Virus record (IMG/VR): IMGVR_UViG_3300045988_174698
From: a virus
Strand: one strand, 5' to 3'
Length of the DNA stretch: 64,000 nt
Shown: positions 31,682-48,358 of the stretch, piece after piece
Layout: the number at the start of each line of letters is the position of its first letter
How positions within the stretch are numbered: position 1 is the stretch's first letter
Notes under the pieces: model-generated
Seen by the model: only the letters and a program-made list of their open reading frames with translations
Databases searched by the model: none
Told to the model about the DNA's origin: nothing
Translations under genes and position numbers: made by a program

Positions 31682-31725
31682 GCCTACACCTCCGATCAAG
31701 GAGATGTAGGCAATGTTTATCGTCT
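31682..31725. terminator. hairpin terminator between convergent genes
   Basis: GCCTACACCTCC-gatcaa-GGAGATGTAGGC (12-bp stem, one mismatch) followed by a T-rich run. It sits between the 3' ends of the plus-strand HNH and the minus-strand small ORF. Confidence 0.45.
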
Positions 31726-31839
31726 TTTAAGAGCTTCATAATTTTTATATGGGCCCCTCCTCTTAGTAAAGGTTTTTCCTTTACCGTGTTAGAGGAAACT
31801 ATAGTGTTCTACTATAGAGACTACACCTTTGATTTAGCA

Positions 31840-32017
31840 GGTAGGCTTTTCTGCTTTGTAATTAGGTAAGTATAGAGCATTATGCCTTACTCTACGGTAA
31901 ACAGTTCTATACGAAAGTTCTCCTGTCTTTTTATCAAAAACAGGGTTGCCTTCTTCATCTACTTTAACTTCTTTAAAGGGCATTGTAATAGCCTTCATTT
32001 TAGGATGTGCCATCTGT
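31840..32017 (-). CDS. small hypothetical protein (59 aa)
   Basis: MAHPKMKAITMPFKEVKVDEEGNPVFDKKTGELSYRTVYRRVRHNALYLPNYKAEKPTC. Below the track's length cut-off. Local GC is higher than the flanks. Confidence 0.2.
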
Positions 32018-32022
32018 GTTAT

Positions 32023-33216
32023 TTAATTATTTTTACCTTGTTTTTTAGCAATATCAAGGAGCATATTCAGTCCTACAGCATCCATAGGATTAGCAGATGC
32101 TCCTTCTTTACCTCCAATAATCATTACTTCAGGAACCCAACGAACATTTGAGTTTGCTAATGCCTGAGCTACACCAATTGTGGTTTCTTTATCAATTGTT
32201 GCTCTTTGCAATGGGTCCAATCCAGCAAGTACTTTAGCTCGTGCTGCTGCAGCTTCTGCCATGCCCTGAGCTTCAATACGTTTTGCATCTTCCTTTGCCT
32301 TTAAAGCAGAAAGACGAGCTACTTCATATTCCTGTTCAGCCTTAGTAACCTCTACAGCCTTAATTTTCTCCTGTTCCCACTTAGCCTTCATAGCAAGTGC
32401 CTTACCCTCCTCTTCAGCACGAATTGCCTCTTGAGCAGCAGCAGCTGACTTCGCACGACTAGTTTGAATAAGCATATTTGCTTCCTGTTGCTGAGCAATC
32501 TGCCTATTTACTTTATCAGAATATGCAATCTTTGATACAGCTACCTGACCAATCTCTAGTCCATAATAAGCAAATGGGGAGGATTCACTACGCTTGTAAC
32601 CTCCTGCTGCTAATGAGTCAGGAATTAGTGTAGCTACATTAATAACTTTCTTTTCTCCAGTAATTGCATCAAGTACTTCGCTACGCTTGATTGCAGTTTT
32701 GTAGACACCATTATTTAACTGATCAGTAATATATTCAATCAAGTCATTCTTCTTCTCTGCATACGATTCAAAAGCAGACATCAGAGGACCTGAAGCATAA
32801 ATTACCTTAGTAACAGTCGGACGAACAAGATCATTCATTAGACGATCCATACCATTATAATCAGTCTGAATACGAGCGAGGTATTTAGGGTCAGTAGGAA
32901 GTTTTACACGAAGTGATCCATAAATCATACCATCTGAAGCATCATTGAAGATTACAGGAATAGGTTTTCCCTGCTGATCGCCAGCCTCAGAGTCAGATCC
33001 GAACCACAACTGTTGAGTTTTATAGTAAGTAGTGGTTTTGCCCCACCACTGCCAGTGAAAACCAGGACTAGTCCAGTATTCCATGTTACCAGTAAACGGA
33101 TACTGATTGACTACAATCGTCTCATTCTTTACATCTTCCCCGATTTTACCCAGAGAAACAACACAGAAAATAGCAAATACTACTACAAGAGCAGCAACAA
33201 TTTTTTTGAAATTCAT
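32023..33216 (-). CDS. SPFH/band-7 (stomatin/prohibitin/HflKC-like) membrane protein
   Basis: N-terminal membrane anchor, then an SPFH core and a long Ala/Glu/Lys-rich coiled coil (AVEVTKAEQEYEVARLSALKAKEDAKRIEAQGMAEAAAARAK). Confidence 0.7.
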   Translation of the reverse strand: MNFKKIVAALVVVFAIFCVVSLGKIGEDVKNETIVVNQYPFTGNMEYWTSPGFHWQWWGKTTTYYKTQQLWFGSDSEAGDQQGKPIPVIFNDASDGMIYGSLRVKLPTDPKYLARIQTDYNGMDRLMNDLVRPTVTKVIYASGPLMSAFESYAEKKNDLIEYITDQLNNGVYKTAIKRSEVLDAITGEKKVINVATLIPDSLAAGGYKRSESSPFAYYGLEIGQVAVSKIAYSDKVNRQIAQQQEANMLIQTSRAKSAAAAQEAIRAEEEGKALAMKAKWEQEKIKAVEVTKAEQEYEVARLSALKAKEDAKRIEAQGMAEAAAARAKVLAGLDPLQRATIDKETTIGVAQALANSNVRWVPEVMIIGGKEGASANPMDAVGLNMLLDIAKKQGKNN

Positions 33217-33394
33217 CTTTAGATTTTTAAATTACACAATTACCTTTTAAAAAAATAATAAAATGGAATTATTACCTTCCATGTAATTTTACGATTAGTA
33301 ATTTTACATGTATCTAATAACTGAAGAGTCATTAGAGTATAGTAAAGAATAAAGGAAATACTAACTAATAGTATAACAAAACGATAAAACCACA

Positions 33395-33676
33395 TTACTT
33401 TAAATTACTTTTAATGTTATCTCTTGTATCACAGTAGATTTTAATTTCTTGGGGGAAAACATGAATGATAGTAGTATCTTTCATTTCCTTAAATGTAGAA
33501 TTAATAATCCTCTCTAGGGAGTCTATCTGTAAAACTAGAGATTTTATATTCTCTTGGTTCTGTCTAAAAAAGGTTTCACTGCGTGTATTATCTATACAAA
33601 AAAATGCAAAACTTATTAGGAAAGAAGTTCCAAGAAGAAGTAAGACAACTCCAATTTTTATAGATTTATCTGTCAT
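33395..33676 (-). CDS. small membrane protein, possible SPFH partner (NfeD-like position)
   Basis: 93-aa ORF with one transmembrane helix, immediately 5' of the SPFH gene. Confidence 0.25.
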   Translation of the reverse strand: MTDKSIKIGVVLLLLGTSFLISFAFFCIDNTRSETFFRQNQENIKSLVLQIDSLERIINSTFKEMKDTTIIHVFPQEIKIYCDTRDNIKSNLK

Positions 33677-34328
33677 AACTAAGAATTAGCATATTAACTA
33701 TTTAAGTTAAGATAAGGATTAGATTTTTATTACAAAAATATATACCAGCTGTGTAACACAATTTTTGCCTGATTGGTACTAGCATTTACCATACACTTCC
33801 TTAACCAATATCAGAAACTATATGTACAGGTATATAAACAATAAATAGCTTCTGTAAGTGTACAACCTATTGCACAGATACTTTCACTATCTTATTATTG
33901 TGATTGGATAGGATTCAAACCTAATGTTTCCCTATTGTACAACAAGGCGAGTTTCATCACATTCTCCTCTCAATCAACCCCCAATCTTATTGAAAACAAT
34001 AAGACGCCCTTGTCTTGTCTGGGAGACTTTCATAAGGGTACTTTTTAAATAAAAAGAGGTAATCCCATAAGTATTATTCTACCTCCGCCTCATCTATAAA
34101 ATCATAGATTATCAGCAGCCTCTGCCAAGGCATCCCTGTTTTTCTATGAACTGGCAGATTCATAAATTATCAGGATAAACAGATTATTAAATTTCTTTAA
34201 TATTTCCGTTTTTATATTTCTTCTGAGTAGCAATCTTTATTATTCCATCCTCGTTTACTAGTTTCTCTTTTCATTCTTAGCTATAACTTTATTAGTATAT
34301 TACTAATATAATGCAGAAAGTAGTGTCA

Positions 34329-34622
34329 TTACTTCTCTAATCCAAATTCATTAATAAAATCAATATTCCTCTTACATAAACTTTTTACAGTAGCAACTTT
34401 ATGAGTTACATTTCCCGCGGTAACCTCAGAAGCTATCTCTGCAATATGCGTAAGATTATTGTATGCCATGATCTCACCATATTGTTTCTTTATTTTATCT
34501 GTATAATTAAATGCTAATGCTTTAATTAGAGCAACATTATGAGAGTAATTTTCAGTAGTTACTCTATCACATTTATTATTTATACGTGTAAACCATAATA
34601 TAACATCCTCTTTTGTTATCAT
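34329..34622 (-). CDS. hypothetical protein
   Basis: 97-aa ORF. Confidence 0.25.
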   Translation of the reverse strand: MITKEDVILWFTRINNKCDRVTTENYSHNVALIKALAFNYTDKIKKQYGEIMAYNNLTHIAEIASEVTAGNVTHKVATVKSLCKRNIDFINEFGLEK

Positions 34623-34648
34623 AGTGTTATGTGCTTATTGTTAGGTTT

Positions 34649-34906
34649 CTAAGAATGAATTTGTTTCCCTTTATATATAGACCAGCCTTTATCTTCTGCT
34701 ATTCTAACACAACGAGACTCCATTTGGCTATGTATTGTTTGAATGTTTTGATTTAAGGAGTACGTTATAGTATCTTCTTTACCATTAATAAGAATTTTGC
34801 CATTTTCATAGTCAAAAAGAATCTTATCTTTAAAGATTTCTATAACTAACAAATAAAGGGTTTCCGCATAGCAAGTTGTATAAATAGGATGAATAGCAAA
34901 GTACAT
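34649..34906 (-). CDS. hypothetical protein
   Basis: 85-aa ORF. Confidence 0.25.
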   Translation of the reverse strand: MYFAIHPIYTTCYAETLYLLVIEIFKDKILFDYENGKILINGKEDTITYSLNQNIQTIHSQMESRCVRIAEDKGWSIYKGKQIHS

Positions 34907-35820
34907 ATTGGGTTTGAATCTAATTATAAAAAAATACTCCTCTGTAACGCATGCCCTTGCAGGAGTATCAATTCACTATAATAATACTGGCTCCCTATAA
35001 TAGTTTCTGAACTCAAGACTACAGAATCTCAAAAGTAAAGTTATTCAATCAGAAACTTCTTGTTGTACCTATCGTATCTAACACATTCACAAATCTGGGG
35101 ATATTGTTTATGCTGACTAAATACTCCTGGCCTGGACTCAAGTTTTTCTACTCCTTCCCTCTAAACTTATAACGAGTGAACTCCCTTAGTAGACAAAGGA
35201 CTCATTGACAGTTTAACTACTACTATCAACCTGCAGTTTAACTCCCCGAATTTACGGAGTAATCCATGCAACTGTACATAGAACTTGCTCTTTTGTTACA
35301 CAACACAAGTTATTGTGAAAGATTTACGACTTCCTTAAACGATTTACCTTAGAACATTGCAGAACTTATTCCTTTAACATATGATTATTTCTACTAATAC
35401 GCATAATAATCTAGAATAAAAACCTCTGTTAAAGTTAAGATACACTAGGTTAATATTATCCTCTAATCCCCGCTATTAGAGTATTCTTTTTTTAGTTTAA
35501 CTCCCCTTCTACTATTGGGGTTTATCTACAATGCTTAAGTTTATATTAGAATTCTTTTTATCTGCGTTTGAATTCTGTAATATCCTCTTCATCATAGCCA
35601 ATTAAGGCTTCAAGAGGAACATCATCAACCATCTCGTCAATAATAGATGTATCTTCAATTTCCATACCCCCCCCTCTTTAAGTTTATAGGCTACTATAAA
35701 TAGTATAGTTGAGACTAAGATAATTAATATAAAAAATGATACTTTTTTAGTTTTGCTTGAGGTAAGTATCTAGATGAAACGTTATAATCTAATCAGTCAT
35801 TTCCTACTCATCTATTTTTA

Positions 35821-36486
35821 TTATATTCCTAAAGGTTTATCCTTTAGCAAGTTTAATGCTGTTTGTAAACCATCTTCTAAACAAGCAGAATAGTGTCTCT
35901 GCCGTACTTTACCAGGTCCAGAATATTCCTCAAGTGTAACTCCCAAGTTTAATTTTGTGATTGTCCAAAAATAGGATAGTGTTTGATCTAAGTGAACTAG
36001 TACAACTGTTCCACACTCGTTTCTGAGCCAGTATTGTAATTCTGTTTGATAGAGAGCTGGGATTAAATTGTCATACAGTTCACAGGTTCTTTTTGAATAA
36101 TGATAACTAATATTGTTCTCTGAACTTAAACTGTATTGTGACATATAATACTGTTGCTGACAGGTAGGATATCCTTTTCTAACAGCTATTTTAACAGTTT
36201 CAAAACTAATTCTTTTCATAAAAGTGATTCAATGAGCAGAAAGATAAATTACAGAGTCATCAGATAGAATTACTTTAGCTTTCGTATTCCTAGGTACATC
36301 CCACTTTTGAAGTTTTCTAACTAATGCTTTTAGAGATCCACACTTTCCTCTATAACAAGAGGAATATTCTGGATAATTAGGACATTCCTTAAACGGTACC
36401 CATGAGTCAATACTACTAACATACCAAAGGGACTTACCAGAGTAACTTAAATAAATTAAAATATTATGAGGTTTAGGAAAATACAT
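35821..36486 (-). CDS. hypothetical protein, TGA-containing
   Basis: ORFs 36229..36486 and 35821..36219 are in one frame (both codon phases 0 mod 3) and join through a single TGA (..YLSAH W ITFMKRISF..). 221 aa. Confidence 0.35.
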
Positions 36487-36497
36487 ACATTTAATTA

Positions 36498-36746
36498 TTA
36501 TTTATAGTAAATCCATTTATATGTTGTATCTTGCTCTACAATTGTATACTCTTTTTTTATTTTTCCTTGTTCATACTTATTCATTATATAATTAACAGTA
36601 AAGTCCCCGACTAGACAATTAATAGATAAAAGAACTATTATTATAGAGAGTAAAACTCTTGATCCTAAAAGTACAAGATTGTCATCATCATAACTTATTA
36701 CGTTGATTAAAAATAATGATGTAACAATGAGTATAACAGATAACAT
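36498..36746 (-). CDS. hypothetical membrane protein
   Basis: 82-aa hydrophobic ORF. Confidence 0.25.
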   Translation of the reverse strand: MLSVILIVTSLFLINVISYDDDNLVLLGSRVLLSIIIVLLSINCLVGDFTVNYIMNKYEQGKIKKEYTIVEQDTTYKWIYYK

Positions 36747-36756
36747 AGTTTATCGA

Positions 36757-37053
36757 TTAGTTGCTGACAGTGTTTAAATACTTAATAAAAGTCTTATTCT
36801 TGATATTGTTTAAAAACCCACTGAAGTTTTTATTAAAAGATATACTATCATAAGTAAACTCAGATTCCCATACATCTGGATAACTAAGTTTAGTAATATA
36901 CTTACGTTTTATCTCGTCTGAGAACCATGATTTATATTCTTTTCGAAAGATGTATACAAATATACTAATATCTTTACCAAAAATAGGATCACAATAAGTA
37001 TATTCTTTATGATATACTATCTTATCACTAATAGTTTTAGGAAATATATTCAT
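36757..37053 (-). CDS. hypothetical protein
   Basis: 98-aa ORF. Confidence 0.25.
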   Translation of the reverse strand: MNIFPKTISDKIVYHKEYTYCDPIFGKDISIFVYIFRKEYKSWFSDEIKRKYITKLSYPDVWESEFTYDSISFNKNFSGFLNNIKNKTFIKYLNTVSN

Positions 37054-37530
37054 AGAAGATAGATTAAAAATTCTAGGATTTGGGCGTTAAGCAGTCCATA
37101 TGCTCGGTTACATGACCACACTTTCAACTTCCGTATGTTTCAGCTATTAAGTTAGTTCCCCTCATTTAAAGATATACGAGCCTAATCGAATATCTTCCTA
37201 GAATAAATAGAAACTTTCTTGTAAATGAAAGCTGTAATGGGCTGAGATAGTGACCCTTACTCAGTCTGCGTTCATAATAGATTCTGAGATCATGGCAATA
37301 CATTAAGTGCTCGCTCCCTACAAATTCTATTTAATCACACGAATAAAAACTCGTAGCAGACATAGAATAATTATATTCTATTAACTTTTGAAACTTTAAA
37401 TTAAAATGAAGGTTACTTCATTCTCTTAAGGTTTCAGGTAAATAATACTAAGCTGTAGCTGTGCTGCTTGTTAACAGTATCCTTCCTCTACTATTAGTTT
37501 AACAGAATTAACAATCCTATATCACTAAGC

Positions 37531-38247
37531 TCAGTATTCAGTGAAATTATTATAACAGAGTCTATAGGCTTTTAACCATTCTGTTTTTGTATGTTTGTGA
37601 GGCATTTGAAAATTACGAAGAGACTTATAAAAACGAGGTGCATCATTAACCTCATCACATATTACATAGAAAGCTTGTATAATATCTCTCTTAAATACCT
37701 CTGATGTTTTTAGAATTTTACTAACTCTACGAAGAGCTTTGAGTCTCTCAAGAGCATACGCTATTAGTATACCATCAACATGAAGCTTACCACTCTGAAA
37801 ATCCTCAGTATTATACCTACCCAAAATTAACTGTATCGCAGATCTAATTTCAAGTTCTGGATTGTCTTTTAAAAAGTCCCTTAAAAGACAGTAGGAATTT
37901 TTACCTGTTTCACAGTAAGCATAAAGGTAATCCTTAGTTAACCATCTTTTATGTCCTGAATTAAACCTAATAGCTAAGCTAATTGGGTCTTCTTTTGAGT
38001 TTATTTTTAACATTCCTAACTCATAATGACGACTAGTATCAATGGAACATAATGTACAGAACGCTTTATAACGATGCTGTCCGTCTACTATATAATTATC
38101 CTTTACAAAGATTGGTGGAATCCAATCTCCCCTTTTCATAGACTGCATAATCTCCCTCACATGAGCAGGATTAGTTAGTCTGTTTGCAGATAAAAATTCG
38201 AGTGAAGGACTAGGTTTGTCCAAAATAATAATTTCTTCGGTTTTCAT
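37531..38247 (-). CDS. ParB-like nuclease domain protein
   Basis: IILDKPSPSLEFLSANRLTNPAHVREI...IFVKDNYIVDGQHRYKAF has the DGxHR core of the ParB/Srx fold. Confidence 0.55.
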   Translation of the reverse strand: MKTEEIIILDKPSPSLEFLSANRLTNPAHVREIMQSMKRGDWIPPIFVKDNYIVDGQHRYKAFCTLCSIDTSRHYELGMLKINSKEDPISLAIRFNSGHKRWLTKDYLYAYCETGKNSYCLLRDFLKDNPELEIRSAIQLILGRYNTEDFQSGKLHVDGILIAYALERLKALRRVSKILKTSEVFKRDIIQAFYVICDEVNDAPRFYKSLRNFQMPHKHTKTEWLKAYRLCYNNFTEY

Positions 38248-38248
38248 A

Positions 38249-38821
38249 TCAATTCCATATTATAAGACCTGAAAGCATTTGAGAACTGTCTTTATAACAA
38301 TAAAGCTTAGAGATTGTATATAAGGACTGAGTATGTTGTATAAATTGAACATATCTAGACCCTATTCCAATTTCTTCAGTAGATAACTTCTCAGCTTTTA
38401 AAGTATTTTTATAAAGAGTCTTGTTAAGAGTATCAATTGTTTTCTCCCTACCTCTAGAACCCCGAGTAGATACAGTAAAAAGTAAAGCCTTAGTACCTGA
38501 CAGCATAGTATTCATTCTGTAGAATACATTCATTATAGAATACTGACCATATAAAATAGTCTCTTCAAGATCAACGTCCATAACATGAGTAGGGAAAACA
38601 TCATCAATATAAGCTCTAACAATCCAGTTTTCAACTGGATGAATATCAACTAAAGTAATATTGTCTGGTAAAAAATACTTCTGATATTGCTGTAAAGCTA
38701 CTTTAGGACTATTTCCAGCTAAAGCTGTTAACTTTTTATTTTCAAATTTCTTAAGACAACCAAATAATTTGTTTTGGACATATCTCTTTGCTTGAGTAGA
38801 ATCTAAATCGTAGCTTTTCAT
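38249..38821 (-). CDS. hypothetical protein (co-directional with the ParB-like gene)
   Basis: 190-aa ORF immediately downstream of 37531..38247. Confidence 0.3.
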   Translation of the reverse strand: MKSYDLDSTQAKRYVQNKLFGCLKKFENKKLTALAGNSPKVALQQYQKYFLPDNITLVDIHPVENWIVRAYIDDVFPTHVMDVDLEETILYGQYSIMNVFYRMNTMLSGTKALLFTVSTRGSRGREKTIDTLNKTLYKNTLKAEKLSTEEIGIGSRYVQFIQHTQSLYTISKLYCYKDSSQMLSGLIIWN

Positions 38822-38845
38822 CTGTATTAGTATTTTTTAATTATG

Positions 38846-38918
38846 TGGGCCCTACAGGACTTGAACCTGTAATCTCTTGATTATGAGTCAATTGCTTCAA
38901 CCATTAAGCTAAGGGCCC
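38846..38918 (-). tRNA. tRNA with anticodon CAT (Met, fMet or Ile2)
   Basis: Acceptor GGGCCCT/AGGGCCC. D-arm GCTT-AATGGTTG-AAGC. Anticodon loop CTCATAA. T-arm ACAGG-TTCAAGT-CCTGT. Confidence 0.65.
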
Positions 38919-40259
38919 TTGCGGATATTTAATAGTGCTTACAGCAAACGTCTTTACACACTAATAGTAAGCTCCCCTTTCGGTATATTTGCCACTAATA
39001 ATTAAATATCCTTAAAAAAGACTATAACATTTTCTTATTGGGAGGCCAGGATCTATAATATACCTCCAGTTATCCAAATATATTGCGCAATAGTTGGTCC
39101 TTAGAGTTGTATCCCTTCATTCAGGCCAAGTGAAACATCTTGGGAAATGTGTACTGTTCTATGATCACTCAAACAGTCGCTTATAGTCTTTTGAAAACAT
39201 AAATTCTATATAAGTAGATAGTCTACTAACTTCCACTTATCAGCAGATAAAACTGGTAAATTATTTTATTTGGTAATGAATGTATATTAGTGACTATAAG
39301 AGTGGTCAAACTCTTATAGTCTAGATATTACTAAAGCGTGTTGTTACACCTAAAGAAGTACTATAAGTATTGCTAGTTATAGTACCGTAAGTCATTAACT
39401 TACCTTCATTGTAGGGAATCCAGCTGCGGCTTTTCAGGTTCTTAACTTGACTTCACTAGCTACTTACTCTTATATTTCAGATTCCTGACTTCGAGTCTAG
39501 TCTTTCACCATTATTTAAGTATACCTACAGTTTTTATTTGAGGAGTAAACTGTGAAACTTATACCTCACCACATACTGCTACTCATCTACTCATTAAAGA
39601 TAGCTACCTCCAAGCTCACTACTTTAGTAATAAAAATCTCCTCTCTTACCAAGTCATTGAGGAGATGAAAAATATGACTCTTGATTTGGGCAAGTACTTA
39701 ATGATCCAGGTTATATCATTACAATTCGTAGCATCATCTGTTGTAGGAATTTCACCTAACTCACCTGGTAGCATCGTTACTCATTTAATGCTTTGGCTGA
39801 GCTGCTTTGTAATAATCATTACTCACTAAGATTCACTTGGTCTTTTACTTAAGCCTAAAAGCCTCTCTATATAAGAAAACATATAGATGTTTTTGTAGAT
39901 AATCTCTATCTACCGAGACAGCCTTTATTTATACTCCCTGCTTATACTGGAGTATAATAATAAACTAAGAAGAGGTTTTACCGAGTTCCGCGGTTTTTTA
40001 TTTAGAGCGCCCTGAAGTCGTTACCTTCACCTTGGGGTCCCTCTAAGCTATAGCAAAGTATAGCAAATAGGTATCATTTAGTTTTCCTAACTACATTTCC
40101 TATTGATACATCTTATAGTATCCTACCTCTCTATACCTTTCTATGTATATCCTTAATTAGTCATGTAACCATTAAGATCTTAGTTTATAAAGGTTATCTG
40201 CTTTTGTTATATCTATACATTGGAGTCCTAATAACAGGTTACAGCCCGTGTATTAAAAA

Positions 40260-40628
40260 CTAGTTTCCTTCTTTTTTATCTTCCGAAGCAATAGAATCTA
40301 AAAGTCTATTAATAACTTCAAAAGACTTTTCAGGGAGCTCCTGTAATGCCTCAGAATTTTTAATTACTTCTGTTGCAATTGTAACTCCAAAAATTTGGTA
40401 ACAGGTAGATCTTGAAGGAACCAAAATAGTTAACACCATGGAAATTATCCCAGCGATACCAGTATATTTCCACCATCTCTTGGCTGTCTTCAATTCACAT
40501 TCATCACAATAATACGCAGTAGATACGATCATAAAAATACTCAGGCATACAATAAAAGTTGCTAATGCAATGATATATACTCCTCCAAAAACAGAACATA
40601 AATATAACCACCAAGCTAGATTTTCCAT
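40260..40628 (-). CDS. hypothetical membrane protein
   Basis: 122-aa ORF with two or three hydrophobic segments. Confidence 0.25.
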   Translation of the reverse strand: MENLAWWLYLCSVFGGVYIIALATFIVCLSIFMIVSTAYYCDECELKTAKRWWKYTGIAGIISMVLTILVPSRSTCYQIFGVTIATEVIKNSEALQELPEKSFEVINRLLDSIASEDKKEGN

Positions 40629-40686
40629 TATTTATTAATTATGTTGATTATTATTAAAGTTTCGGATTTCTAAGGCATTTGAATTT

Positions 40687-41055
40687 TTATTCTAGTAAAT
40701 TTAACGCTATTATTAAAGCTTCTCCCAAAGCATTTTCATACAACATGAAAAGCTCTTCCGTAAGTTTAGTGTCACTATTGATTACTGAATTTGGAGTATA
40801 AATGATATAGGCATAGTATCTGATTTGGTCTTTATAAACAGCAATAATAGAGATATGAATCCCTTTATCATCTCTTAACCACTCACTAAGTTCTTCCTGT
40901 AAAGGAGCATAGCAGCTAAAATTGGGAATGTACCCAATACCTTCACTATAAGTTTGGGTATATAAACTGCCCGTAGTATCATAGTAAACTCTGCTTGTTC
41001 CATTATAGCCTTTTTCCTTCGCAAGTTTGGCAGTGTTATAATGTACAAATTCCAT
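40687..41055 (-). CDS. hypothetical protein, family A (paralog of 22584..23006)
   Basis: MEFVHYNTAKLAKEKGY and APLQEELSEWLRDDKGIHISII...ENALGEALIIALNLLE are shared with 22584..23006. Confidence 0.4.
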   Translation of the reverse strand: MEFVHYNTAKLAKEKGYNGTSRVYYDTTGSLYTQTYSEGIGYIPNFSCYAPLQEELSEWLRDDKGIHISIIAVYKDQIRYYAYIIYTPNSVINSDTKLTEELFMLYENALGEALIIALNLLE

Positions 41056-41142
41056 AAGATGTATTTTTTAATTTTAAAAGTCCTCAGCTTAAAAATGAAT
41101 ATGAGTTACCACCCTGTGTTGTAGTGAAAACCACATATAGTC

Positions 41143-41334
41143 TTAATTGTTGTTGAACTTGAACTTAGCTAGTGTGTTAACAACAACACGTACTGCTACT
41201 ACAGTATTGATAACAGGGATCATTATTAGTACAAAAGCTGTTGTTGCATCTATATCTTCCCGCTCGACTAAATATACACCTGTTACTAAAGCACTAAATC
41301 CATAAATAATGGTGAAAAGTATCAAAAAAATCAT
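41143..41334 (-). CDS. hypothetical membrane protein
   Basis: 63-aa hydrophobic ORF. Confidence 0.2.
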   Translation of the reverse strand: MIFLILFTIIYGFSALVTGVYLVEREDIDATTAFVLIMIPVINTVVAVRVVVNTLAKFKFNNN

Positions 41335-41357
41335 TGGTTTAATATATTAGTTGAATG

Positions 41358-41440
41358 TGCAGGTAGAGGGACTCGAACCCCCACTTCTTTCGAAATATCG
41401 TCCTAAGCGATACGTGGCTGCCTAATTTCACCATACCTGC
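41358..41440 (-). tRNA. tRNA-Leu (anticodon TAG), class II
   Basis: Acceptor GCAGGTA/TACCTGC. Anticodon stem TATCG/CGATA, loop CTTAGGA. 13-nt variable arm. T-arm GGGGG-TTCGAGT-CCCTC. Confidence 0.7.
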
Positions 41441-41523
41441 AAAATATAATAACTAAGTTGCAACGTATATTCTATTATTTCTTTTTGTTGTTGAATCGAA
41501 CTTTCATATTTTGTATTATATGT

Positions 41524-41727
41524 TTAAACGAGGCTAACTAAGCTCCCACAAATACCACAATATCTTAGATACCAACCACAGTAACTAGATTCATCATAAA
41601 TGTAAATACAATCACATTCACCTGTCTTAGCATACTTTTCTTTAGCAGCTTTGACTTCTTCCTCAGAAACTTCTATAAGTTTAGTTCCTACACCATCATT
41701 TACTTCTCTATACAATTGTTGTTTCAT
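41524..41727 (-). CDS. hypothetical Cys-rich protein
   Basis: 67-aa ORF. Confidence 0.25.
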   Translation of the reverse strand: MKQQLYREVNDGVGTKLIEVSEEEVKAAKEKYAKTGECDCIYIYDESSYCGWYLRYCGICGSLVSLV

Positions 41728-41924
41728 TATGAAATTCCTTTAATAAATATTTCTCCTATAGCATTAGGTTTATAGATAGGTTTAGCATTAGGCCATGTTC
41801 CTACAAATATTACACGAACTAAAACTCTCCAATCTGATTCCCATACAGATCCTCTTGATATTTCTTTTACCTTATTGTATATCTTAATACAATCTTCAGC
41901 TTCCTTCTTATGCTCAGTCTTCAA
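41727..41924 (-). CDS. hypothetical protein
   Basis: 65-aa ORF. Confidence 0.2.
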   Translation of the reverse strand: MKTEHKKEAEDCIKIYNKVKEISRGSVWESDWRVLVRVIFVGTWPNAKPIYKPNAIGEIFIKGIS

Positions 41925-42207
41925 CCGATTTTGAAGGACATCGTATAACTTGCTCGTAGATTAAATCTTTTTATGATATCTTCCCAGATAGTGAATGCAA
42001 TTATGACAATACATGATATCTACATGAGAACATGACAAACATGGATAGTCATACCTTATTTTTGAAAAATTTATCTTCATAATATTATTTAGCTAAAAAT
42101 TACTCACTCTAGCATTTTCTAACTAGTAATATAAGATAGCCTGTATGCCTACAGGAAGAGTACCTAACTAGTAGTCTCTTCCTTAGTTGATGTGTACACC
42201 ATCAGAG

Positions 42208-42426
42208 CTAAAGTTTTCTGCCGCACATTGGACAATATCTTATTTCCATTGAAAAAGACTCATCTTCTGATTCATAATCTAATGTAAATTCCCCGTTATC
42301 ATATTTACTAATTGTAAATTTCCGATAAATTCCTATATAATCGGTTTCACAAATAATATTTTCTATATATGATTTGTTTATTTCTTTTAAATCAGTATTC
42401 ACTATTTTATTACAATGTATACACAT
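42208..42426 (-). CDS. hypothetical zinc-ribbon protein
   Basis: 72-aa ORF with CxxC...CxxC (MCIHCNK...YCPMCGRKL). Confidence 0.25.
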   Translation of the reverse strand: MCIHCNKIVNTDLKEINKSYIENIICETDYIGIYRKFTISKYDNGEFTLDYESEDESFSMEIRYCPMCGRKL

Positions 42427-42464
42427 AATAATATAATATTACTTATTCTTCTATTAAATAATTG

Positions 42465-42550
42465 TACTCGGAGCGGGAATCGAACCCGCACGGCCATTAC
42501 TGGCCAAGGGATTTTAAGTCCCTCGTGTCTACCTATTCCACCATCCGAGC
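42465..42550 (-). tRNA. tRNA-Leu (anticodon TAA), class II
   Basis: Anticodon stem AGGGA/TCCCT, loop CTTAAAA. Variable arm with a GGCC/GGCC stem. T-arm GCGGG-TTCGATT-CCCGC. The acceptor has a G1-U72 pair. Confidence 0.65.
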
Positions 42551-42572
42551 AAATCAAATAAAATGATTAATG

Positions 42573-42646
42573 TGGACCCTACAGGGCTTGAACCTGTAAC
42601 CTACTGATTATGAGTCAGTTGCTCTAACCAACTGAGCTAAGGGTCC
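42573..42646 (-). tRNA. second tRNA with anticodon CAT (Met, fMet or Ile2)
   Basis: Acceptor GGACCCT/AGGGTCC. D-arm GCTC-AGTTGGTTAG-AGC. Anticodon stem ACTGA/TCAGT, loop CTCATAA. T-arm ACAGG-TTCAAGC-CCTGT. Confidence 0.7.
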
Positions 42647-42660
42647 GTAAAATAAATTTG

Positions 42661-42789
42661 TCTAATTGACAGGATTCGAACCTGCAGATGTTTTGATTAA
42701 CACCACATATTGTTTCAATACAGCCAAATTAGTTTTCATTTGACGAAGGGATATTAGTCCCTAGCGTATACCAATTCCGCCACAATTAA
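42661..42789 (-). ncRNA. atypical 129-nt tRNA-like RNA
   Basis: The ends pair as an acceptor stem (TTAATTG / CAATTAG, six Watson-Crick pairs plus one G-U). 3' T-arm GCAGG-TTCGAAT-CCTGT. 5' D-arm-like GCG...CGC. Anticodon-like hairpin AGGGA-CTAATA-TCCCT (6-nt loop, or 8-nt if the closing pair opens). These flank a roughly 60-nt insertion before the T-arm. Confidence 0.3.
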
Positions 42790-42925
42790 ACAAACTTATC
42801 TTTAACTTTAAAATGAAGGAGTGGGTGACTGTCACTCTAACAGTTACTAATACTAGTATAATGGCCTAGCAGCTCAGTGCCACAGTCTTCCGACACATTA
42901 GTAATGTATTTTTACTTCATCTTGC

Positions 42926-43028
42926 AGGTGTAACGGGATTCGAACCAGACATACGATTCCCTCAAGAGTTCTCTCTTAGCGTATCTCCGAAGTTGCCACC
43001 TCGGTGTTTTACCATTAAACTATACACC
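42926..43028 (-). ncRNA. atypical 103-nt tRNA-like element
   Basis: Acceptor GGTGTAT / TTACACC (6 bp). D-arm GTTT-AATGGTA-AAAC. Anticodon-like stem CCGAG/TTCGG with an 8-nt loop GTGGCAAC. A roughly 40-nt hairpin insertion (ATACG...AAGAG-AGAA-CTCTT...CGTAT) sits before a weak TTCGAAT T-arm. Confidence 0.25.
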
Positions 43029-43072
43029 TAAAACAAGTTGCAAATATAGCACTTAATTATTGAATATGCAAA

Positions 43073-43402
43073 TTATTTACAACTATGATAAACATGAAAA
43101 GGTCCACAATGAATTTTACCATTTACAGAAGTTTCTCTTCTATAAATAATTTGAAAAACATTTGGATGATCCTTTATATAGTCTTCGACTTGCTGAACTG
43201 AAGAGAATGTTGCCAATATTTCCCATTTGTTAGAAATCGCATAATATTTACAATCTTTAGCAAATTTCAACAAACTTTTAGTCACTTCTTTATCAAGAAA
43301 TGCTTTACACTCTTCAGCACTTTTACTTGACTGACACTGATCAAAATGAGGGCAATGATGACAATTATCTCGCCAATTTTCTTTCTTAGGAATCATAATC
43401 AA
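43073..43402 (-). CDS. hypothetical Cys/His-rich protein
   Basis: 109-aa ORF (NCHHCPHFDQC...HCGPFHVYHSC). Confidence 0.3.
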   Translation of the reverse strand: MIMIPKKENWRDNCHHCPHFDQCQSSKSAEECKAFLDKEVTKSLLKFAKDCKYYAISNKWEILATFSSVQQVEDYIKDHPNVFQIIYRRETSVNGKIHCGPFHVYHSCK

Positions 43403-43595
43403 GGATTTTTAACTCTACAGGTTCGTCTTCCCACTTTAATTCTCTTCCAATCAGCTTTTTAGCAGATCCTTTAGGTAAAGGAAGAGTCATACTATATGAA
43501 TACAAAGGAAGAAACCTTTCTAAAATTTCTGATCTAACTGGACGAAATTGAAAAATAGCTTCCATCCCATTCTTATCTACTGCTATCCATGGCAT
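43386..43595 (-). CDS. hypothetical protein
   Basis: 69-aa ORF. Confidence 0.2.
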   Translation of the reverse strand: MPWIAVDKNGMEAIFQFRPVRSEILERFLPLYSYSMTLPLPKGSAKKLIGRELKWEDEPVELKILDYDS

Positions 43596-43611
43596 ATCTT
43601 TATATTTTTAG

Positions 43612-43685
43612 TGATCCCAGAGAGGTTCGAACTCTCGACCCCTACATTAAAAGTGTAGTGCTCTAACCAACTGAGCTACGGGATC
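43612..43685 (-). tRNA. tRNA-Lys (anticodon TTT)
   Basis: D-arm GCTC-AGTTGGTTAG-AGC. Anticodon stem CTACA/TGTAG, loop CTTTTAA. T-arm GAGAG-TTCGAAC-CTCTC. The acceptor has one G-U pair. Confidence 0.7.
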
Positions 43686-43691
43686 TATTTT

Positions 43692-43925
43692 TTATAACTT
43701 TTCTTCTTTTAAAATTTTATTTGATGCTTTGTCGACTAGTTGAACAGAAGAATATTTCTTTGAAAAACTTTTAAATATTCCCAAACCATTATCTTCTCTA
43801 CACATACACACAGAAGATTCAAATTCTTTGTGCATCATATTTTTGAATTTAATAGGAAATACTAAATTGTATTGTTTTGTAACTCCTATAATTCTGATTT
43901 CATATCGTATATTATTATTTTTCAT
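43692..43925 (-). CDS. hypothetical protein
   Basis: 77-aa ORF. Confidence 0.2.
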   Translation of the reverse strand: MKNNNIRYEIRIIGVTKQYNLVFPIKFKNMMHKEFESSVCMCREDNGLGIFKSFSKKYSSVQLVDKASNKILKEEKL

Positions 43926-44306
43926 ACTTAAATTTGTGTTTTACACCTAAAACTTATTACCAGATTTTGACGCTATAAAATAGGTACTCATGCTGTGATA
44001 TAAGAAACTGGTGCCCTCAACATCTTGGGAAGTTATTGAGTTTTTTAAACCTATCCAGCATTTTCCAACTGGTAAAGATTTGGCCCATATGCCTATGGGA
44101 TTATACCACAACTCAATGCGGCAGTGAAAGGTTCAACATATCCTGTACTCTTTAATCTACAATACTTAACAACTGTGGAATCAGTTTTACAATGTCACAT
44201 ACTTATAGTCATTTCAACTCCTTCCTGTCCGTCCTTAGCAGAAGTACGTTACTTCTCCCCCATTATATAACATTGTATAAGTATCTTCGAAATAGGTAAT
44301 ATAGTG

Positions 44307-44549
44307 TTAGAGATCTACAAATTTCACGTAATAGGCTCTTAAATCTCTGTCTAAATATCGGTTATTTAATGTATCTTCAAAATCTTTTAAAGATTTAAAG
44401 ATATGAGCCGATTCTTTATCAGCAATTATAAGCTCTTTTGCAAATTCATATAATTCTTTGTCTGTTTTTGATTCAATTTCATCATAGAAATTATCTATAC
44501 TGAAAATTGAAATTAAAAGTACTTTCATAGGAAATATTAATCTGTCCAA
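44307..44549 (-). CDS. hypothetical protein
   Basis: 80-aa ORF. Confidence 0.25.
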   Translation of the reverse strand: MDRLIFPMKVLLISIFSIDNFYDEIESKTDKELYEFAKELIIADKESAHIFKSLKDFEDTLNNRYLDRDLRAYYVKFVDL

Positions 44550-45641
44550 TCAATACAGGCTACTGCAAATTCTTCAGAAAGTTGACACAACCAATCGTTG
44601 TACTCTTCATCTGTTGAATTTTTACGTTTATTTTCTGCAGCTTTTGTCATTACATCGCCGAATGTTTCTTCCATATTATATTAATGTTAGAATTCTAAAA
44701 GAAAATTTTTCTCTTGCCCACACAACTTATTCGACCTTTATATCTAACTATACAAAGGAACTAAATTACGAACACAACTGGTTTTCGTCTGTGGGTAAAT
44801 TTCGACCCTATTGAGAAAAATTCTTGACAATTCTGCCATTTGCCTTTGCTCCATGTTGACGTACATGAACTCACGCTATCCCGCAAAATCTTTATATTAC
44901 TATAAAGCTTTATCCTTAAAAGACCGCTAGGTAGATCGACGCCTAATAAGTATTCACCTTCCTTTGCTCACTTTCTTAAGGACGTTAGGTTCCTAATTAT
45001 ACTCTTAAAAGTGGAAGAGTTTATTTAAAAAAAGATAAACGAGCTTATTTAGTTCATAATGATAGTATACTTCCATTATTTATCAGAATCTAGTATAAAG
45101 GGTCTACTGATTCTATATTTTGCTCTAATTATGGTATACCCTTTACTTATACTATAATGTTCATATCTTTGTATATAAGAAATGTGTAGTCAAAAATAGA
45201 GGAGGTACTATACTTCACTCCTCTATCTTACGATTTCCAGTTTTCGGCTCTTATTTATACTCGTTTAAGCCTACTTACATTAGATAAAACTAATCATAGT
45301 AAATCCAGACATTAATTTCTGGTAATCGTCAGGCACGATTTCGAGTTTTAAAAACAAATATACCTACTATCATGATATTCCTCAGTTACATAATCCTATC
45401 ATGAGGTGCCTCCACGATAAGTGACTAACTAAAGAGAACTGAGAGTCTTTAAGTTAGTATTATTTCTCCTCCTCGGTATATTTGAAAATACACAACCATA
45501 CTTAGTGCTATGAGCTTCCCAAAAACTACTCGCGCGTTTTCATTTAAGAGATTCTAAACTAAGTGATCCTACTCTATGGTAGATTAATTATGGCTGCTAC
45601 TTAATAGCAGAATTTAACCCTTAGGTTTTATGTGTATCTTT

Positions 45642-45926
45642 TTAAAGTATTGTATATACTACAATGATACTGTATTCATTTTCTACTTCTATGAAGTATA
45701 ACTCTATTATTTCATCATCAAATTTAAATAGACAGTAGTCACCACTCTCTTCTGTTGGTATTCCCAAAAGGAGAGAGTAGATTTCCTTGAACCGTCGGAA
45801 AGACTCTTTCCCCAATTCTTTATCGGTATAAACACCAAAAGACCCGATAATACCACATATGTTAGAATTGCTCGAATTTGTATCATTATATAAAATGTTT
45901 ATGTATGCTGGAAATAATTTGTCCAC
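45642..45926 (-). CDS. hypothetical protein
   Basis: 94-aa ORF. Confidence 0.25.
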   Translation of the reverse strand: MDKLFPAYINILYNDTNSSNSNICGIIGSFGVYTDKELGKESFRRFKEIYSLLLGIPTEESGDYCLFKFDDEIIELYFIEVENEYSIIVVYTIL

Positions 45927-46361
45927 TCTCTTCTGTTGGTATAAATCAATAAAATCTTATCAAACGCTTACTCAAACTTTAAATTATTAATTTATAAATT
46001 ATTAATTAAAGAGTAACTCGCTGAGTGTGAGAAGTTTATTGATTATAATATGTGAAAATTGTTTCTGAATTTTTTAAAAAATAAAAGAATAGAGTGTGGT
46101 TTAGAGATTGATAATCAAGCACTTAGCATCATTTATAAAAATATTTAATAATATATATTAAAAATATTTATAAATAATATTAAAAAAGAGACTGCCTCTG
46201 CTCAGTCTCTATCAATCACAGACAAAGGCACTTAATGTGCAGAGGGAGGGCTCTGCTTCACAGCAGTGCAAATTCAATTATTAACTATTAACCCTTGTTA
46301 ATTCTGTTTCAGAACAGTATTTAGTGTTTGTAGGGAAGTTTATTTTCCTACAAACAGAGTA

Positions 46362-46529
46362 GTTATTCAAGGAATGATGCTCCAGCAGCGATAGCATAAG
46401 ATATTACAGTACTTACTACAGGTGAATATCCTAATACTTCTGCACCACCGAATGCAAAAGCAGCGAGGAGAGTACCCCAGAAGATAGTACTAAATAGTCT
46501 TTCAGAAAAAGAACCTTTATTTTCCATTT
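46362..46529 (-). CDS. small membrane protein (55 aa)
   Basis: MENKGSFSERLFSTIFWGTLLAAFAFGGAEVLGYSPVVSTVISYAIAAGASFLE. Below the track's cut-off. Confidence 0.2.
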
Positions 46530-46713
46530 AGTTGAATAACTTTTTGGATATAGAATTCGTTGTTTTTAGTTGCTTTGATTACGTAGAAAGCGAGTTTATT
46601 GTGTATTCAGCCTCTTCAGTTGTATACTACATAATCGCCGCAATTGGTAGTTAAGATGTTAAAAGGGAGTTTTCACTCCCCTTTAACAGTTAACTGGCCG
46701 TTACGAGCAGGTT

Positions 46714-47196
46714 TTAGGCTTTCCATACGAGGTTAGCCGTTTCCTTCTCGGTGGTGGTATCGAGAGGCAGCCCGTTGTCGAAGTCCCGTTGCTTGAACTT
46801 GACGGTTCCCTGAGCTACGATCGTCTTACCGAGGCAAGCTTCGAGGCGATCATAGTCGGTTTCGAGATTGCAGAGGTCAGCAGATACAGGATGAACGGGC
46901 TGCATATCTGCGTCACGACGGCGGAGGTTTGCCAACGAGAAGTTAGCCAGCTTGCCGTTCTTGAGGCCCATGACGAGCACTTCGACGTTCTTGGAGTCTT
47001 TCCGCACCTGACGGGTAGTGATTACGGCGTCTTCAAGAGTGTCAGGGAATTCAAAGACATCGCCATTGGAAAGGCCATAGCTGACGAGGCCGATACCAGT
47101 GCTCTTCAGAAAGTCTACTGCGACCTGCTTTACTTCGAGGCCGTTTCGAGTAGGAATAATAGGAAACTCTTCCTTCTTGAATTGATTAATCTTCAT
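46714..47196 (-). CDS. hypothetical protein encoded by a compositionally foreign, GC-rich (about 50%) gene
   Basis: 160-aa ORF with GC-rich codon usage (GGC, CTG, GAC, GCC, CGG) unlike any other gene in the window. It uses TGG for Trp and has no in-frame TGA. The plus-strand ORF 46789..47211 is its antisense. Confidence 0.5.
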   Translation of the reverse strand: MKINQFKKEEFPIIPTRNGLEVKQVAVDFLKSTGIGLVSYGLSNGDVFEFPDTLEDAVITTRQVRKDSKNVEVLVMGLKNGKLANFSLANLRRRDADMQPVHPVSADLCNLETDYDRLEACLGKTIVAQGTVKFKQRDFDNGLPLDTTTEKETANLVWKA

Positions 47197-47417
47197 AGTA
47201 TAAATATTTAATTAATTGTTATAAATCTCGACATTTGTTGTCGTAATAATTTGTTGGAAGCTTTTGTTTATGTTCTTCCTAGTTATTAGTTGGAAGCTTT
47301 GGTAAATGTTAGTTGTTTTGGTTTACATTGATTTCAAATAAAAACAGTTTGAGGGCAGTTCGAAGAACTGGGCTATTAAGTATAGTTCTTTAAGTATAGG
47401 TATTAAGTATAGTTAGG

Positions 47418-47500
47418 GTTTAAAAATGCAATTGATCGGTTTAAAAATACAACACCTTATAGTTTAAAAATACAATTGATTAGTTTAAAAATACAATCGT
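47418..47500. repeat. four tandem 21-23-bp direct repeats (GGTTTAAAAATACAAT core), upstream of initiator-like gene 1
   Basis: Copies start at about 47418, 47439, 47462 and 47483 (gggtttaaaaatgcaattgat / cggtttaaaaatacaacacc / agtttaaaaatacaattgat / tagtttaaaaatacaatcgt). They end about 100 bp before the ATG at 47597. Confidence 0.6.
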
Positions 47501-47596
47501 TATTAAATTTTATGGTAAAAAATTACCAATTATTTGCACAATTAAAGTTAATTATGTATCTTTGTGTTTAGATAATTAATTTAATATAAGAATAAG

Positions 47597-48358
47597 ATGA
47601 ATCAGTATGTAATATTACCGAAAAAAGAGAATGGGGAGCTACTCCAAAAGTATGAGATTCTAATATATGTGTGTATACGTAGGTATATGAATAAGGATAC
47701 TATGGAGGCATTTCCATCCTTAGATAGAATTGCTAAGGATTCTGGGTGTAGTAAGCCCACCGTTATAAAAACACTAAAAGAGATTAGAAGAAAAGGCTAT
47801 ATTACCTGGAAGTCTTGTGGTAGAGCTACGGTGTATACTTTTAATAATGAGAAATCTTTTGAGCCGTTCAGTTATGAGTTTTTAGATAAGAAAGACTTAT
47901 CTAAATCTGAGAAGCTTCAGATACTCTGTACCCAGCAATATATGTATAAAGATAATGGTATCGGAAAGATGTCATTTTCAGATAGAGAGTTATGTGAAAT
48001 GACAGGTCTTAATTGGAGAACTCTTAATAAAAACACACAGTCATTAATACAAAAAAATTATGTAAATCAAGTTTCTCTTCAGATTCGTGATAAAGAATCA
48101 GGTTGTTTTAAAAAAGAAACTATTTATAATCTTAATGATCTGGGTCAGGCTATTGTATTTGCATTTCAAAATCATGAAAATAGAATACAACGAAATGAGG
48201 ATTCTATTGAAGAATTAAGAAATCAGGTTCAAAAACTTGAAGAGAGAGATCAGAAGAGATCAAAGGATGTTGAGTTGTTATTAAGTGAAGTAAGAAGACT
48301 TCAGAAGGAGAACAGTCAACTTAAGAACGGAGAAATTCCAGAAGTATTTGAGATGTAA
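47597..48358 (+). CDS. winged-helix DNA-binding initiator-like protein, paralog 1
   Basis: 253 aa. N-terminal wHTH-like region (FPSLDRIAKDSGCSKPTVIKTLKEIRRKGYI). Conserved block FEPFSYEFLDKKDL...QQYMYKDNGIGKMSFSDRELCEMTGLNWRTL shared with 50906..51688. C-terminal coiled coil. Confidence 0.5.
   Translation: MNQYVILPKKENGELLQKYEILIYVCIRRYMNKDTMEAFPSLDRIAKDSGCSKPTVIKTLKEIRRKGYITWKSCGRATVYTFNNEKSFEPFSYEFLDKKDLSKSEKLQILCTQQYMYKDNGIGKMSFSDRELCEMTGLNWRTLNKNTQSLIQKNYVNQVSLQIRDKESGCFKKETIYNLNDLGQAIVFAFQNHENRIQRNEDSIEELRNQVQKLEERDQKRSKDVELLLSEVRRLQKENSQLKNGEIPEVFEM

Follow-up and report, generated by a model that had tools for sequence, protein, structure and literature searches.

Phage T4 encodes two stable non-tRNA RNAs of ~120-140 nucleotides (nt), species 1 and 2 (rnaC and rnaD), which lie in its transfer RNA (tRNA) cluster and are matured with the tRNAs. 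GOLLD and ROOL are large, ornate RNAs of prophages and bacteria, often encoded beside tRNA genes (PMC5737381), and they form RNA-only cages (PMC12286853). The locus described here bears comparison with both systems. It is an island of genes for tRNAs and transfer-messenger RNA (tmRNA) in a viral DNA stretch of 64,000 nt, IMG/VR record IMGVR_UViG_3300045988_174698 (the whole stretch is called the window below), in which short genes are separated by long tracts free of open reading frames (ORFs). These tracts are very probably genes for structured non-coding RNAs, an assignment based on their conservation and synteny, the absence of a coding signal, their strand, covariation in secondary structure, terminators and the exchange of modules between phages.

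One of these RNAs, T2, matches ROOL in size (~620 nt; mean for ROOL, 581 nt) and resembles the GOLLD/ROOL type in size range (580-800 nt), structure and context: it is multi-helical, with long-range helices and invariant loops, is phage-encoded in a tRNA/tmRNA-rich region and ends at a terminator. It differs from both in having no detectable sequence or structure similarity to them, in belonging to a lineage of crAss-like gut phages and in always having an acidic micro-ORF upstream. As with the T4 RNAs, some units adjoin tRNAs: T4a ends 4 nt before a tRNA-Met gene, and a T7a-like RNA precedes a tRNA in relative L028. The RNAs of the island are, however, longer than those of T4 (270-620 nt), more numerous and without sequence relation to them, and any processing with tRNAs is putative. 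Large phage RNAs beside tRNAs are thus already known as a kind; what is new here are the classes, how many of them one island holds, the micro-ORF that always accompanies T2 and, in another unit (the handle RNA), a variable domain that comes in alleles. Literature searches for non-coding RNAs in crAss-like phages found no report.

The ORF-free tracts and their phage

The window is from a Zeta-group (zeta_12) crAss-like phage whose late genes read TGA as Trp. A relative, OLVX01000015 (168,412 bp), is given in the supplement of Yutin et al. 2021 as Zeta-group crAss-like, zeta_12, code 'TGA|w', and close relatives occur in IMG/VR and human-gut metagenomes as contigs of 100-171 kb. For the Zeta group, recoding, introns and inteins have been described, and non-coding regions or RNA are not mentioned (Yutin et al. 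2021); the same paper, which defined the group, reports up to 14 introns per genome. The window has a GC content of ~30%, with genes on the minus strand between ~23 and 46 kb. With the standard code, long ORFs (stop-to-stop, at least 80 codons) cover 82% of 1-23000 and 63% of 47000-64000, and these values rise to 94% and 91%, respectively, when TGA is read as sense; in 33700-45640 the two readings give 45% and 49%. TGA sense codons lie in late-type genes at 1-12800 and 51900-64000, with 11 in-frame TGA in 51892-54240, and the 12 tRNAs that ARAGORN calls in the window include no suppressor tRNA(UCA).

The initial annotation had placed five ORF-free tracts, more than 3 kb in total, between 33700 and 45640. 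They are present at 33700-34330, 34910-35820, 37060-37530, 38930-40260 and 44700-45640 and sum to 4285 bp. The same phenomenon continues beyond that range, with further gene-free gaps at 31172-32022, 41925-42207, 42647-43072, 43926-44306 and 45927-46713, so that ~40% of the 17-kb tRNA/tmRNA island is without a protein gene. The statement that no frame holds an ORF applies to gene-like ORFs: none is opened in the tracts by the standard code or by TGA or TAG as sense, and the ORF list shows only scattered ORFs of 40-66 amino acids (aa). Reading TAA as sense fills the whole AT-rich DNA with ORFs and is hence uninformative, and the tracts gain no gene-like ORF from it. Random stop-to-stop frames inside the tracts do reach 95-108 codons, and the second tract holds a conserved micro-ORF of 35 aa. 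Nor are the gaps uniformly non-coding, given this micro-ORF and the two tRNA-like genes in the neighbouring gap at 42647-43072.

Of the smaller features that had been pointed out, the slightly higher GC content of the tracts is borne out (0.331, against 0.301 in the ORFs lying between), as are the T-arm-like fragment GGATTCAAACC, at 33911, and the hairpin at 45197-45230, which has 9 bp followed by T5 on the minus strand. The hairpin AACTTCAATGTGAAGTT exists and starts at 30393, not 30399. The repeated word TTTAACTCCCC is found at 35496; its other copy is at 35237 rather than 35211, and a third variant, TTAACTAC, is at 35213.

The units distinguished within and around the tracts are as follows.

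34928-35546, minus strand: T2 RNA, ~620 nt, with an intrinsic terminator hairpin plus T7 at 34969-34928
35558-35665, minus strand: acidic micro-ORF of 35 aa (MEIEDTSIIDEMVDDVPLEALIGYDEEDITEFKRR), directly upstream of the T2 RNA
38919-39326, minus strand: T4a RNA, ~400 nt, ending 4 nt before the 5' end of tRNA-Met (38918-38845)
39631-40200, minus strand: T4b composite RNA region, ~570 nt, with a RAGATH-33-like motif, several hairpins and the handle-variable-handle RNA
39631-39864, minus strand: handle-variable-handle RNA (handle RNA), with 5' handle 39864-39832, variable domain 39831-39697 and 3' handle 39696-39631
39327-39630, minus strand: segment of ~300 nt that separates T4a from the handle RNA and aligns only with the nearest relatives, L014 and L025
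45191-45641, minus strand: T7a RNA, ~450 nt, which begins at the stop codon of orf94 and ends with the hairpin ATAGAGGAG...CTCCTCTAT and T5 (45226-45191)
44680-44955, minus strand: T7b structured module
34047-34273, minus strand: T1 5' module, ending in the hairpin GGAGGTA...TACCTC plus a T-run (34086-34047)
33900-33981, minus strand: T1 tRNA-like element, with acceptor-like stem GGGGTTG/CAATCAC and intact T arm AGGTTTGAATCCT
33745-33899, minus strand: T1 3' module, part of the T1 covariation test
31670-32020, minus strand: G31, a structured segment directly after the SPFH gene, with a strong terminator at 31711-31672
37054-37530, minus strand: T3, a conserved ORF-less tract after the ParB-like gene
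42661-42789 and 42925-43029, minus strand: a pair of atypical tRNA-like genes whose variable-arm regions carry inserts of 59 and 32 nt, respectively

Conservation without a coding signal

The tracts were compared with more than 30 related contigs, in shallow alignments of 3-24 sequences from a few clades. Among six close relatives, T2 (34910-35820) is 94.6% identical, T4a (38930-39326) 96.3%, T3 92% and T1 89%, compared with 74-89% for neighbouring ORFs (74-87% around T2). Mismatches are spread evenly over the three codon phases in the tracts and are concentrated at third positions in the ORFs, as in the SPFH gene (113/44/596). Conserved tract blocks also contain indels of 1 and 2 nt, which would shift any reading frame.

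Diverged relatives were reached through homologues of a 190-aa protein that are 56-58% identical (contigs L028-L034). At homologous places, independent gene calls leave gene-free gaps of 0.9-1.6 kb in these contigs. Tract identities reach 80.6% over 547 nt for T2 (L034), 79.8% over 579 nt for T4b (L033) and 82% over 500 nt for T7a (L034), whereas the orf190 and ParB genes of the same relatives, at ~61% nucleotide identity, are less similar than the tracts. Where the orf190 and ParB proteins are 36-58% identical, identities are 57-78% for T2, 80-84% for T4b and 63-89% for T7a. The alignments thus show tracts conserved at the nucleotide level and no intact genes in their place. Several clades share the order tRNA-Met, micro-ORF, T2, T1, orf93, SPFH gene, G31, orf196 and tmRNA, while the other modules are shuffled.

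Covariation, strand and terminators

Compensatory base changes were counted in an unbiased test that takes the window's own minimum-free-energy (MFE) fold as the structure and compares the count with slid controls. T2 has 27 compensatory pairs (8-15 in slid controls), T4a 6 (0-2), T7a 5 (0-2), T7b 12 (2-6), T1 25 (4-9) and G31 19 (5-10), and in all six the broken pairs are fewer than in the slid controls. Seven coding controls treated in the same way gave compensatory counts inside or just above those of their slid controls and broken pairs equal to them. MFE z-scores, obtained from an approximate shuffle, are modest: -3.2 for T4b, -2.7 for T1, -2.3 for T4a, -1.8 for T7a, -0.8 for T2 and -5.9 for G31, with coding controls at -0.9 to +0.7. 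Conserved G-U pairs and hairpin-plus-T-run terminators exist on the minus strand only, which assigns the RNAs to that strand. A hairpin containing GC pairs and followed by a U run was found at the ends of the T1 5' module, T2, the handle RNA, T7a and G31.

Rfam searches for known families, covering the whole window at gathering score, 33000-46500 at E<=1 and the T2 and T4 regions at E<=10, returned only tRNAs, the tmRNA and a weak RAGATH-33 match. Over the same ranges no covariance-model match to GOLLD or ROOL was obtained, and no group I or II intron model matched the window or its sub-regions up to E 10. The earlier suggestion of large non-coding RNAs near tRNA clusters holds in kind, with nucleotide conservation, no codon periodicity, terminator or tRNA ends and compensatory changes, and fails as regards known families, since neither GOLLD, ROOL, introns nor any other known large-RNA family appears in the tracts. 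Self-BLAST of 33600-46800 against the whole window recovered two tRNA-Met genes only, and a repeat search of the window gave nothing in the tracts beyond tRNA similarity. As no tract resembles other parts of the window, the tracts are neither paralogues nor template/variable repeats of a diversity-generating retroelement (DGR).

T2 and its micro-ORF

On the minus strand, the second tract comprises ~155 nt of conserved upstream sequence, the micro-ORF at 35665-35558 and then ~620 nt free of ORFs, at 35546-34928. The micro-ORF stands just before T2 in all five clades that carry this RNA, with 27-39 aa and the motif SQxLVDEFLDDNAIEAL. Between the close variants L044 and L041, four of the five differences in the motif region are synonymous, which argues that the micro-ORF is a real gene; it matched no PHROG family.

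T2 homologues were recovered by exact-motif scans of IMG/VR and with an nhmmer profile in place of a covariance model. The five clades are the window group, L034 (78% identity), an eight-contig clade (74%), L028/L035/L036 (63%) and L033 (57%), and the copies in all of them are ~600 nt long with the same kind of terminator. In the window, this is the hairpin GATACTCCT...AGGAGTAT followed by T7. Invariant stretches include TGATTGAATAACTTTACTT (35051-35033), CTCGTTATAAGTTTAGAG (35176-35159) and GAGTTAA in two or three copies. A dozen or more helices are predicted, in two domains. RNAalifold finds compensatory changes in 21 of 100 pairs for the 3' half and in 26 of 87 at full length. A hand-built nested model of the 3' domain (383 columns) has 13 helices and 19 compensatory pairs among 74, against 0-5 in slid controls, a figure that none of 500 shuffles reached. 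The long-range closing helix ACUGC:GCCAGU changes from C-G to U-A in two clades, the hairpin AGUUUCUGA/UCAGAAACU covaries at four positions, and three positions of the terminator stem show compensatory changes between clades. Invariant loops are complementary to one another (AGUUA with UAACU; CUGCAGG with UUCUGUAG), which makes pseudoknots or loop-loop contacts likely.

T2 is followed by orf85, a 47-aa ORF, a 207-aa ORF or no gene, depending on the clade, and it is thus unlikely to be the leader of one particular gene. GenBank phages gave no nucleotide match to T2, and across 185,579 bacterial genomes the T2 motif had four chance matches, which nhmmer did not confirm. A gapped form of GGGAGTTAAAC, wrongly spaced, was discarded; its sole match, in a giant-virus contig, arose by chance.

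T4a, T4b and the handle RNA

T4a begins with the conserved hairpin GACTATAAGAG...CTCTTATAGTC (39321-39292). Its fold comprises 17 helices and 112 pairs, with 98.9% of cells paired and 6 compensatory pairs against 0-1 in slid controls. The 12-bp hairpin itself, GACTATAAGAG-tttgac-CACTCTTATAGTC at 39292-39321 on the minus strand, has the compensatory variants GACTACAAGAG/CTCTTGTAGTC and GACTATAGGAG/CTCCTATAGTC. It also occurs at 8784-8838 in L002/L007, at 6426-6465 in L034 and downstream of the handle RNA in ~100-kb contigs, and it recurs at module boundaries even where a relative has nothing else of T4a. A role as a signal for processing or recombination is possible.

T4b is 80-84% identical to L033 3250-3787, while the L033 proteins are ~56% identical to those of the window. 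RNAalifold counts 11 compensatory pairs among 151, against 0 in controls. Its motif at 40179-40070 scores 31.7 bits against RAGATH-33 (RF03102), and the L033 copy 35.1 bits, below the gathering score of 120.4. The alignment runs over model positions 1-113 and includes three hairpins in which the loops CAUAGAAAGG and GGAAAAC..AAUGAUAC are identical and the stems are built from other pairs. This 110-nt piece is probably a distant relative of RAGATH-33. It shares the whole-model alignment with that family; here, unlike there, it is only the 5' part of a conserved unit of ~570 nt.

RNAs with conserved ends and an exchangeable internal domain include Y RNAs, vault RNAs and guide-RNA scaffolds. The handle RNA resembles them in that its near-invariant handles pair and close a replaceable central domain. 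It differs in having no linked partner protein gene, in carrying discrete alleles of 45-190 nt rather than short guides and in having no sequence relation to them. The 5' handle is 33 nt long, and the 3' handle is 66 nt long and ends in the hairpin ATCTCCTC...GAGGAGAT plus T5. The two pair through the helix GGCUUUC:GAGAGUC, in which the window has a compensatory C-G to U-A change, and a second stem closes the variable domain, for which six or more unrelated types were recorded. Handle identity is 90-100% across some 25-30 IMG/VR contigs (14-178 kb), among them ~100-kb crAss-like genomes, and in the GenBank genomes cr108_1 and cr111_1 (Steigviridae); apart from the handles, these genomes have no nucleotide similarity to the window. 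A small plus-strand ORF at 39665-39829 was rejected as a gene, its start being unconserved and its frame differing between variants.

T7a and T7b

T7a is 82% identical to its homologue in L034 and 63-70% to that in L028, and RNAalifold finds 22 compensatory pairs among 97 (2-3 in controls). In L028 the homologue lies directly upstream of a tRNA (5116-5179, from the Rfam scan) and of the orf190 homologue, without orf94 upstream; in L034 it is upstream of the orf190 homologue. The place that T7a holds in these two relatives is that of T4 in the window. T7b is 88-90% identical to L028-L030 and ~65% to other clades, with 13 compensatory pairs among 33 against 0-2 (RNAalifold). Beside T7a, an exact 20-nt direct repeat, CCACTCTCTTCTGTTGGTAT, stands at 45742-45761 and 45923-45942, 181 nt apart, one copy within orf94 and the other overlapping the annotated GTG start of orf94.

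T1, G31 and T3

In the L044 clade, a segment homologous to the T1 5' module comes directly after T2. The tRNA-like element that follows in the window sits at the site of a true tRNA-Thr in L028 and L035, and the T arms align. Its anticodon arm is replaced by a tetraloop hairpin, and two haplotype groups show compensatory differences. ARAGORN made no tRNA call for 33981-33900, and no Rfam tRNA match was found there at E<=1. tRNA mimics such as the mascRNA of MALAT1 and the tRNA-like domain of tmRNA, or tRNA-like 3'-end processing signals, offer a parallel, and the T1 element appears to share with them an acceptor-like stem and a canonical T arm without an anticodon loop. It may also simply be a tRNA gene that has drifted with its fold kept. 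After the T1 3' module comes TATTTTTG (33740), a promoter motif of the host -7 type that lies 56 nt ahead of orf93.

G31 is syntenic with the SPFH gene in several clades. It makes up the first 350 nt of an 851-bp ORF-poor tract downstream of that gene (31172-32022, minus strand); the remainder, 31172-31669, is aligned in some relatives only. T3 has a hairpin and T-run at 37423-37398 and, at 92% identity, no codon periodicity. A segment of ~130 bp within it (37078-37209) is missing from the close relatives L004, L006, L007, L018 and L020-L022.

tRNA, tmRNA and protein genes around the modules

The window holds 12 tRNAs, a tmRNA and the two atypical tRNA-like genes, which score 32.8 and 34.7 bits against the Rfam tRNA model (gathering score 29) and account for the gap at 42647-43072. 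The second of them is conserved in L028, and one of the pair is called by ARAGORN as a tRNA-Ile(aat) containing a 41-nt intron. The tmRNA at 29842-30263 (minus strand) scores 52.3 bits in Rfam (gathering score 47) and was missed by ARAGORN, which calls the tmRNAs of relatives (L035 9995-10425, L036 240-646, L046 9797-10175) with tag peptides such as AKKTFRKMTNKVMSLVPQTRLMAIAA. With introns allowed, ARAGORN also reports a tRNA-Ala(cgc) with a 344-nt intron at 12788-13226 (minus strand), which could be a false positive or a real intron-containing tRNA; relaxed runs with long introns yielded implausible calls only. L028 carries a Pistol self-cleaving ribozyme at 7155-7224 (plus strand; 61.9 bits, gathering score 34.5) between a 110-aa ORF and tRNA-Glu, and Rfam at gathering score found none in the window.

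Paralogous small proteins of phrog_12005 are encoded at 35821-36219 and 40687-41055 (minus strand), on either side of RNA modules. The least conserved ORF of the island is orf132, with 74% nucleotide identity among close relatives. The ParB-like protein had only weak matches, to Enterococcus phages, among GenBank phages.

Alternative interpretations

Several points weigh against the assignment of the tracts to non-coding RNA genes. T2, T7a and G31 each start right after the stop codon of a protein gene, and the view of the RNAs as stable trans-acting molecules processed with tRNAs is inferred, not seen. T3 has no covariation signal in the MFE-based test (3 compensatory pairs, 2-5 in slid controls), the same test had only three sequences for T4b, and the alignments are shallow throughout. 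The RNAalifold and hand-built structures were fitted to the alignments on which they are scored, and the MFE of T2 is not unusually low. In the promoter search, neither the sigma-70 consensus nor the host-type TAnnTTTG is enriched (17 TAnnTTTG found, 13 expected), which leaves the units without an assigned promoter. The main rival, for some units (T2, T7a, G31), is that the tracts are long cis-acting untranslated regions (UTRs), either 3' UTRs of the preceding small genes or leaders and attenuators of the next gene. T2 starts ~12 nt past the micro-ORF stop codon and its terminator ends 22 nt before the start of orf85, T7a begins at the orf94 stop codon and G31 at that of the SPFH gene, and the terminator at the end of each unit is also expected of a 3' UTR or attenuator. 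As an account of the tracts a UTR role is nevertheless unlikely: the gene downstream of T2 varies by clade, T7a occurs in L028 without orf94, and no protein gene adjoins T4a or the handle RNA. An RNA of ~620 nt with a dozen or more helices, better conserved than most proteins, would also be disproportionate for regulating a 35-aa peptide.

The remaining readings, as pseudogenes, hidden coding sequence, introns or DNA elements, are poorly supported. Decay of genes and degraded introns or endonuclease footprints had both been put forward initially, and neither is supported. Remnants of selfish elements, such as footprints of homing endonucleases or group I or II introns that are degraded or lack an ORF, would suit the intron-rich Zeta genomes, the mosaic, shuffled modules, the near-identity of the handle RNA in unrelated crAss families (which suggests horizontal transfer), the Pistol ribozyme of a relative and the RAGATH-33-like motif. 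They are very unlikely, since Rfam returned neither an intron nor a ribozyme family for the window or, up to E 10, for its sub-regions, the tracts lie between genes and interrupt none that is recognisable, endonuclease remnants are missing and the RNA ends are terminators or tRNAs rather than exon junctions. Replication or packaging sites, recombination hot spots or DGR templates acting at the DNA level are highly improbable. The island has a ParB-like gene, Zeta phages carry DGRs and the conserved blocks around variable inserts could be homology arms for cassette exchange, but strand-specific compensatory pairs that include G-U are an RNA signature, and the window contains neither direct or inverted repeat arrays nor a template/variable-repeat pair. 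Least probable of all are decayed protein genes or genes hidden by an unusual code or recoding. Zeta-group phages do combine TGA recoding with fragmented genes, and random frames in the tracts are up to 108 codons long; yet no variant code opens gene-like ORFs, substitutions are without codon periodicity and the plus-strand ORF in T4b changes frame between variants. Decay in particular is at odds with the lack of an ORF at the homologous place in relatives of any clade, even where proteins are only 36-58% identical, with frameshifting indels in conserved blocks and with tract conservation equal to or above that of real genes.

Proposed organization and significance

As genes for structured non-coding RNAs, the tracts would be transcribed on the minus strand, the strand of the surrounding tRNA, tmRNA and small protein genes, and the RNAs are probably co-expressed with the tRNA and tmRNA genes. 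The model envisages at least six unrelated RNA modules (T2, T4a, T4b with the handle RNA, T7a, T7b and T1), plus G31 outside the range. Each unit would end either with a hairpin-plus-U-run terminator of its own or just where a tRNA begins; at such a tRNA junction, RNase P cleavage would produce the 3' end of the preceding RNA. The modules act as cassettes that are shuffled between related phages relative to the protein genes. Effects on host translation or RNA metabolism, or a part in counter-defence, can reasonably be guessed from the tRNA/tmRNA setting and by analogy with GOLLD and ROOL. A more far-reaching and rather doubtful proposal is that the island encodes a whole set of new RNA classes which the phage deploys in trans. 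T2, accompanied by its obligatory acidic micro-protein, would then be a new ornate RNA of the GOLLD/ROOL type, possibly self-assembling through the invariant loops. The handle RNA would serve as a scaffold on which the exchangeable domain confers specificity, in the manner of a decoy, sponge or guide, with alleles swapped across crAss families against host translation or RNA-targeting defences.

crAss-like phages are the most abundant human gut viruses, and their annotation is protein-centred. If ~40% of a 17-kb accessory island does code for conserved, folded RNAs, then RNA-based functions are a major investment of these phages, and the RNAs are ones that annotation has so far missed. T2 would be the third example of a very large non-ribosomal, non-intron RNA of bacteria or phages, beside GOLLD and ROOL, and together with its partner micro-protein it is a defined target, ~620 nt long, for studies of structure and function. 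The near-unchanged handle RNA in crAss families otherwise without nucleotide similarity points to horizontally exchanged RNA modules, and the results give concrete models with which to annotate 'empty' regions of the gut virome.

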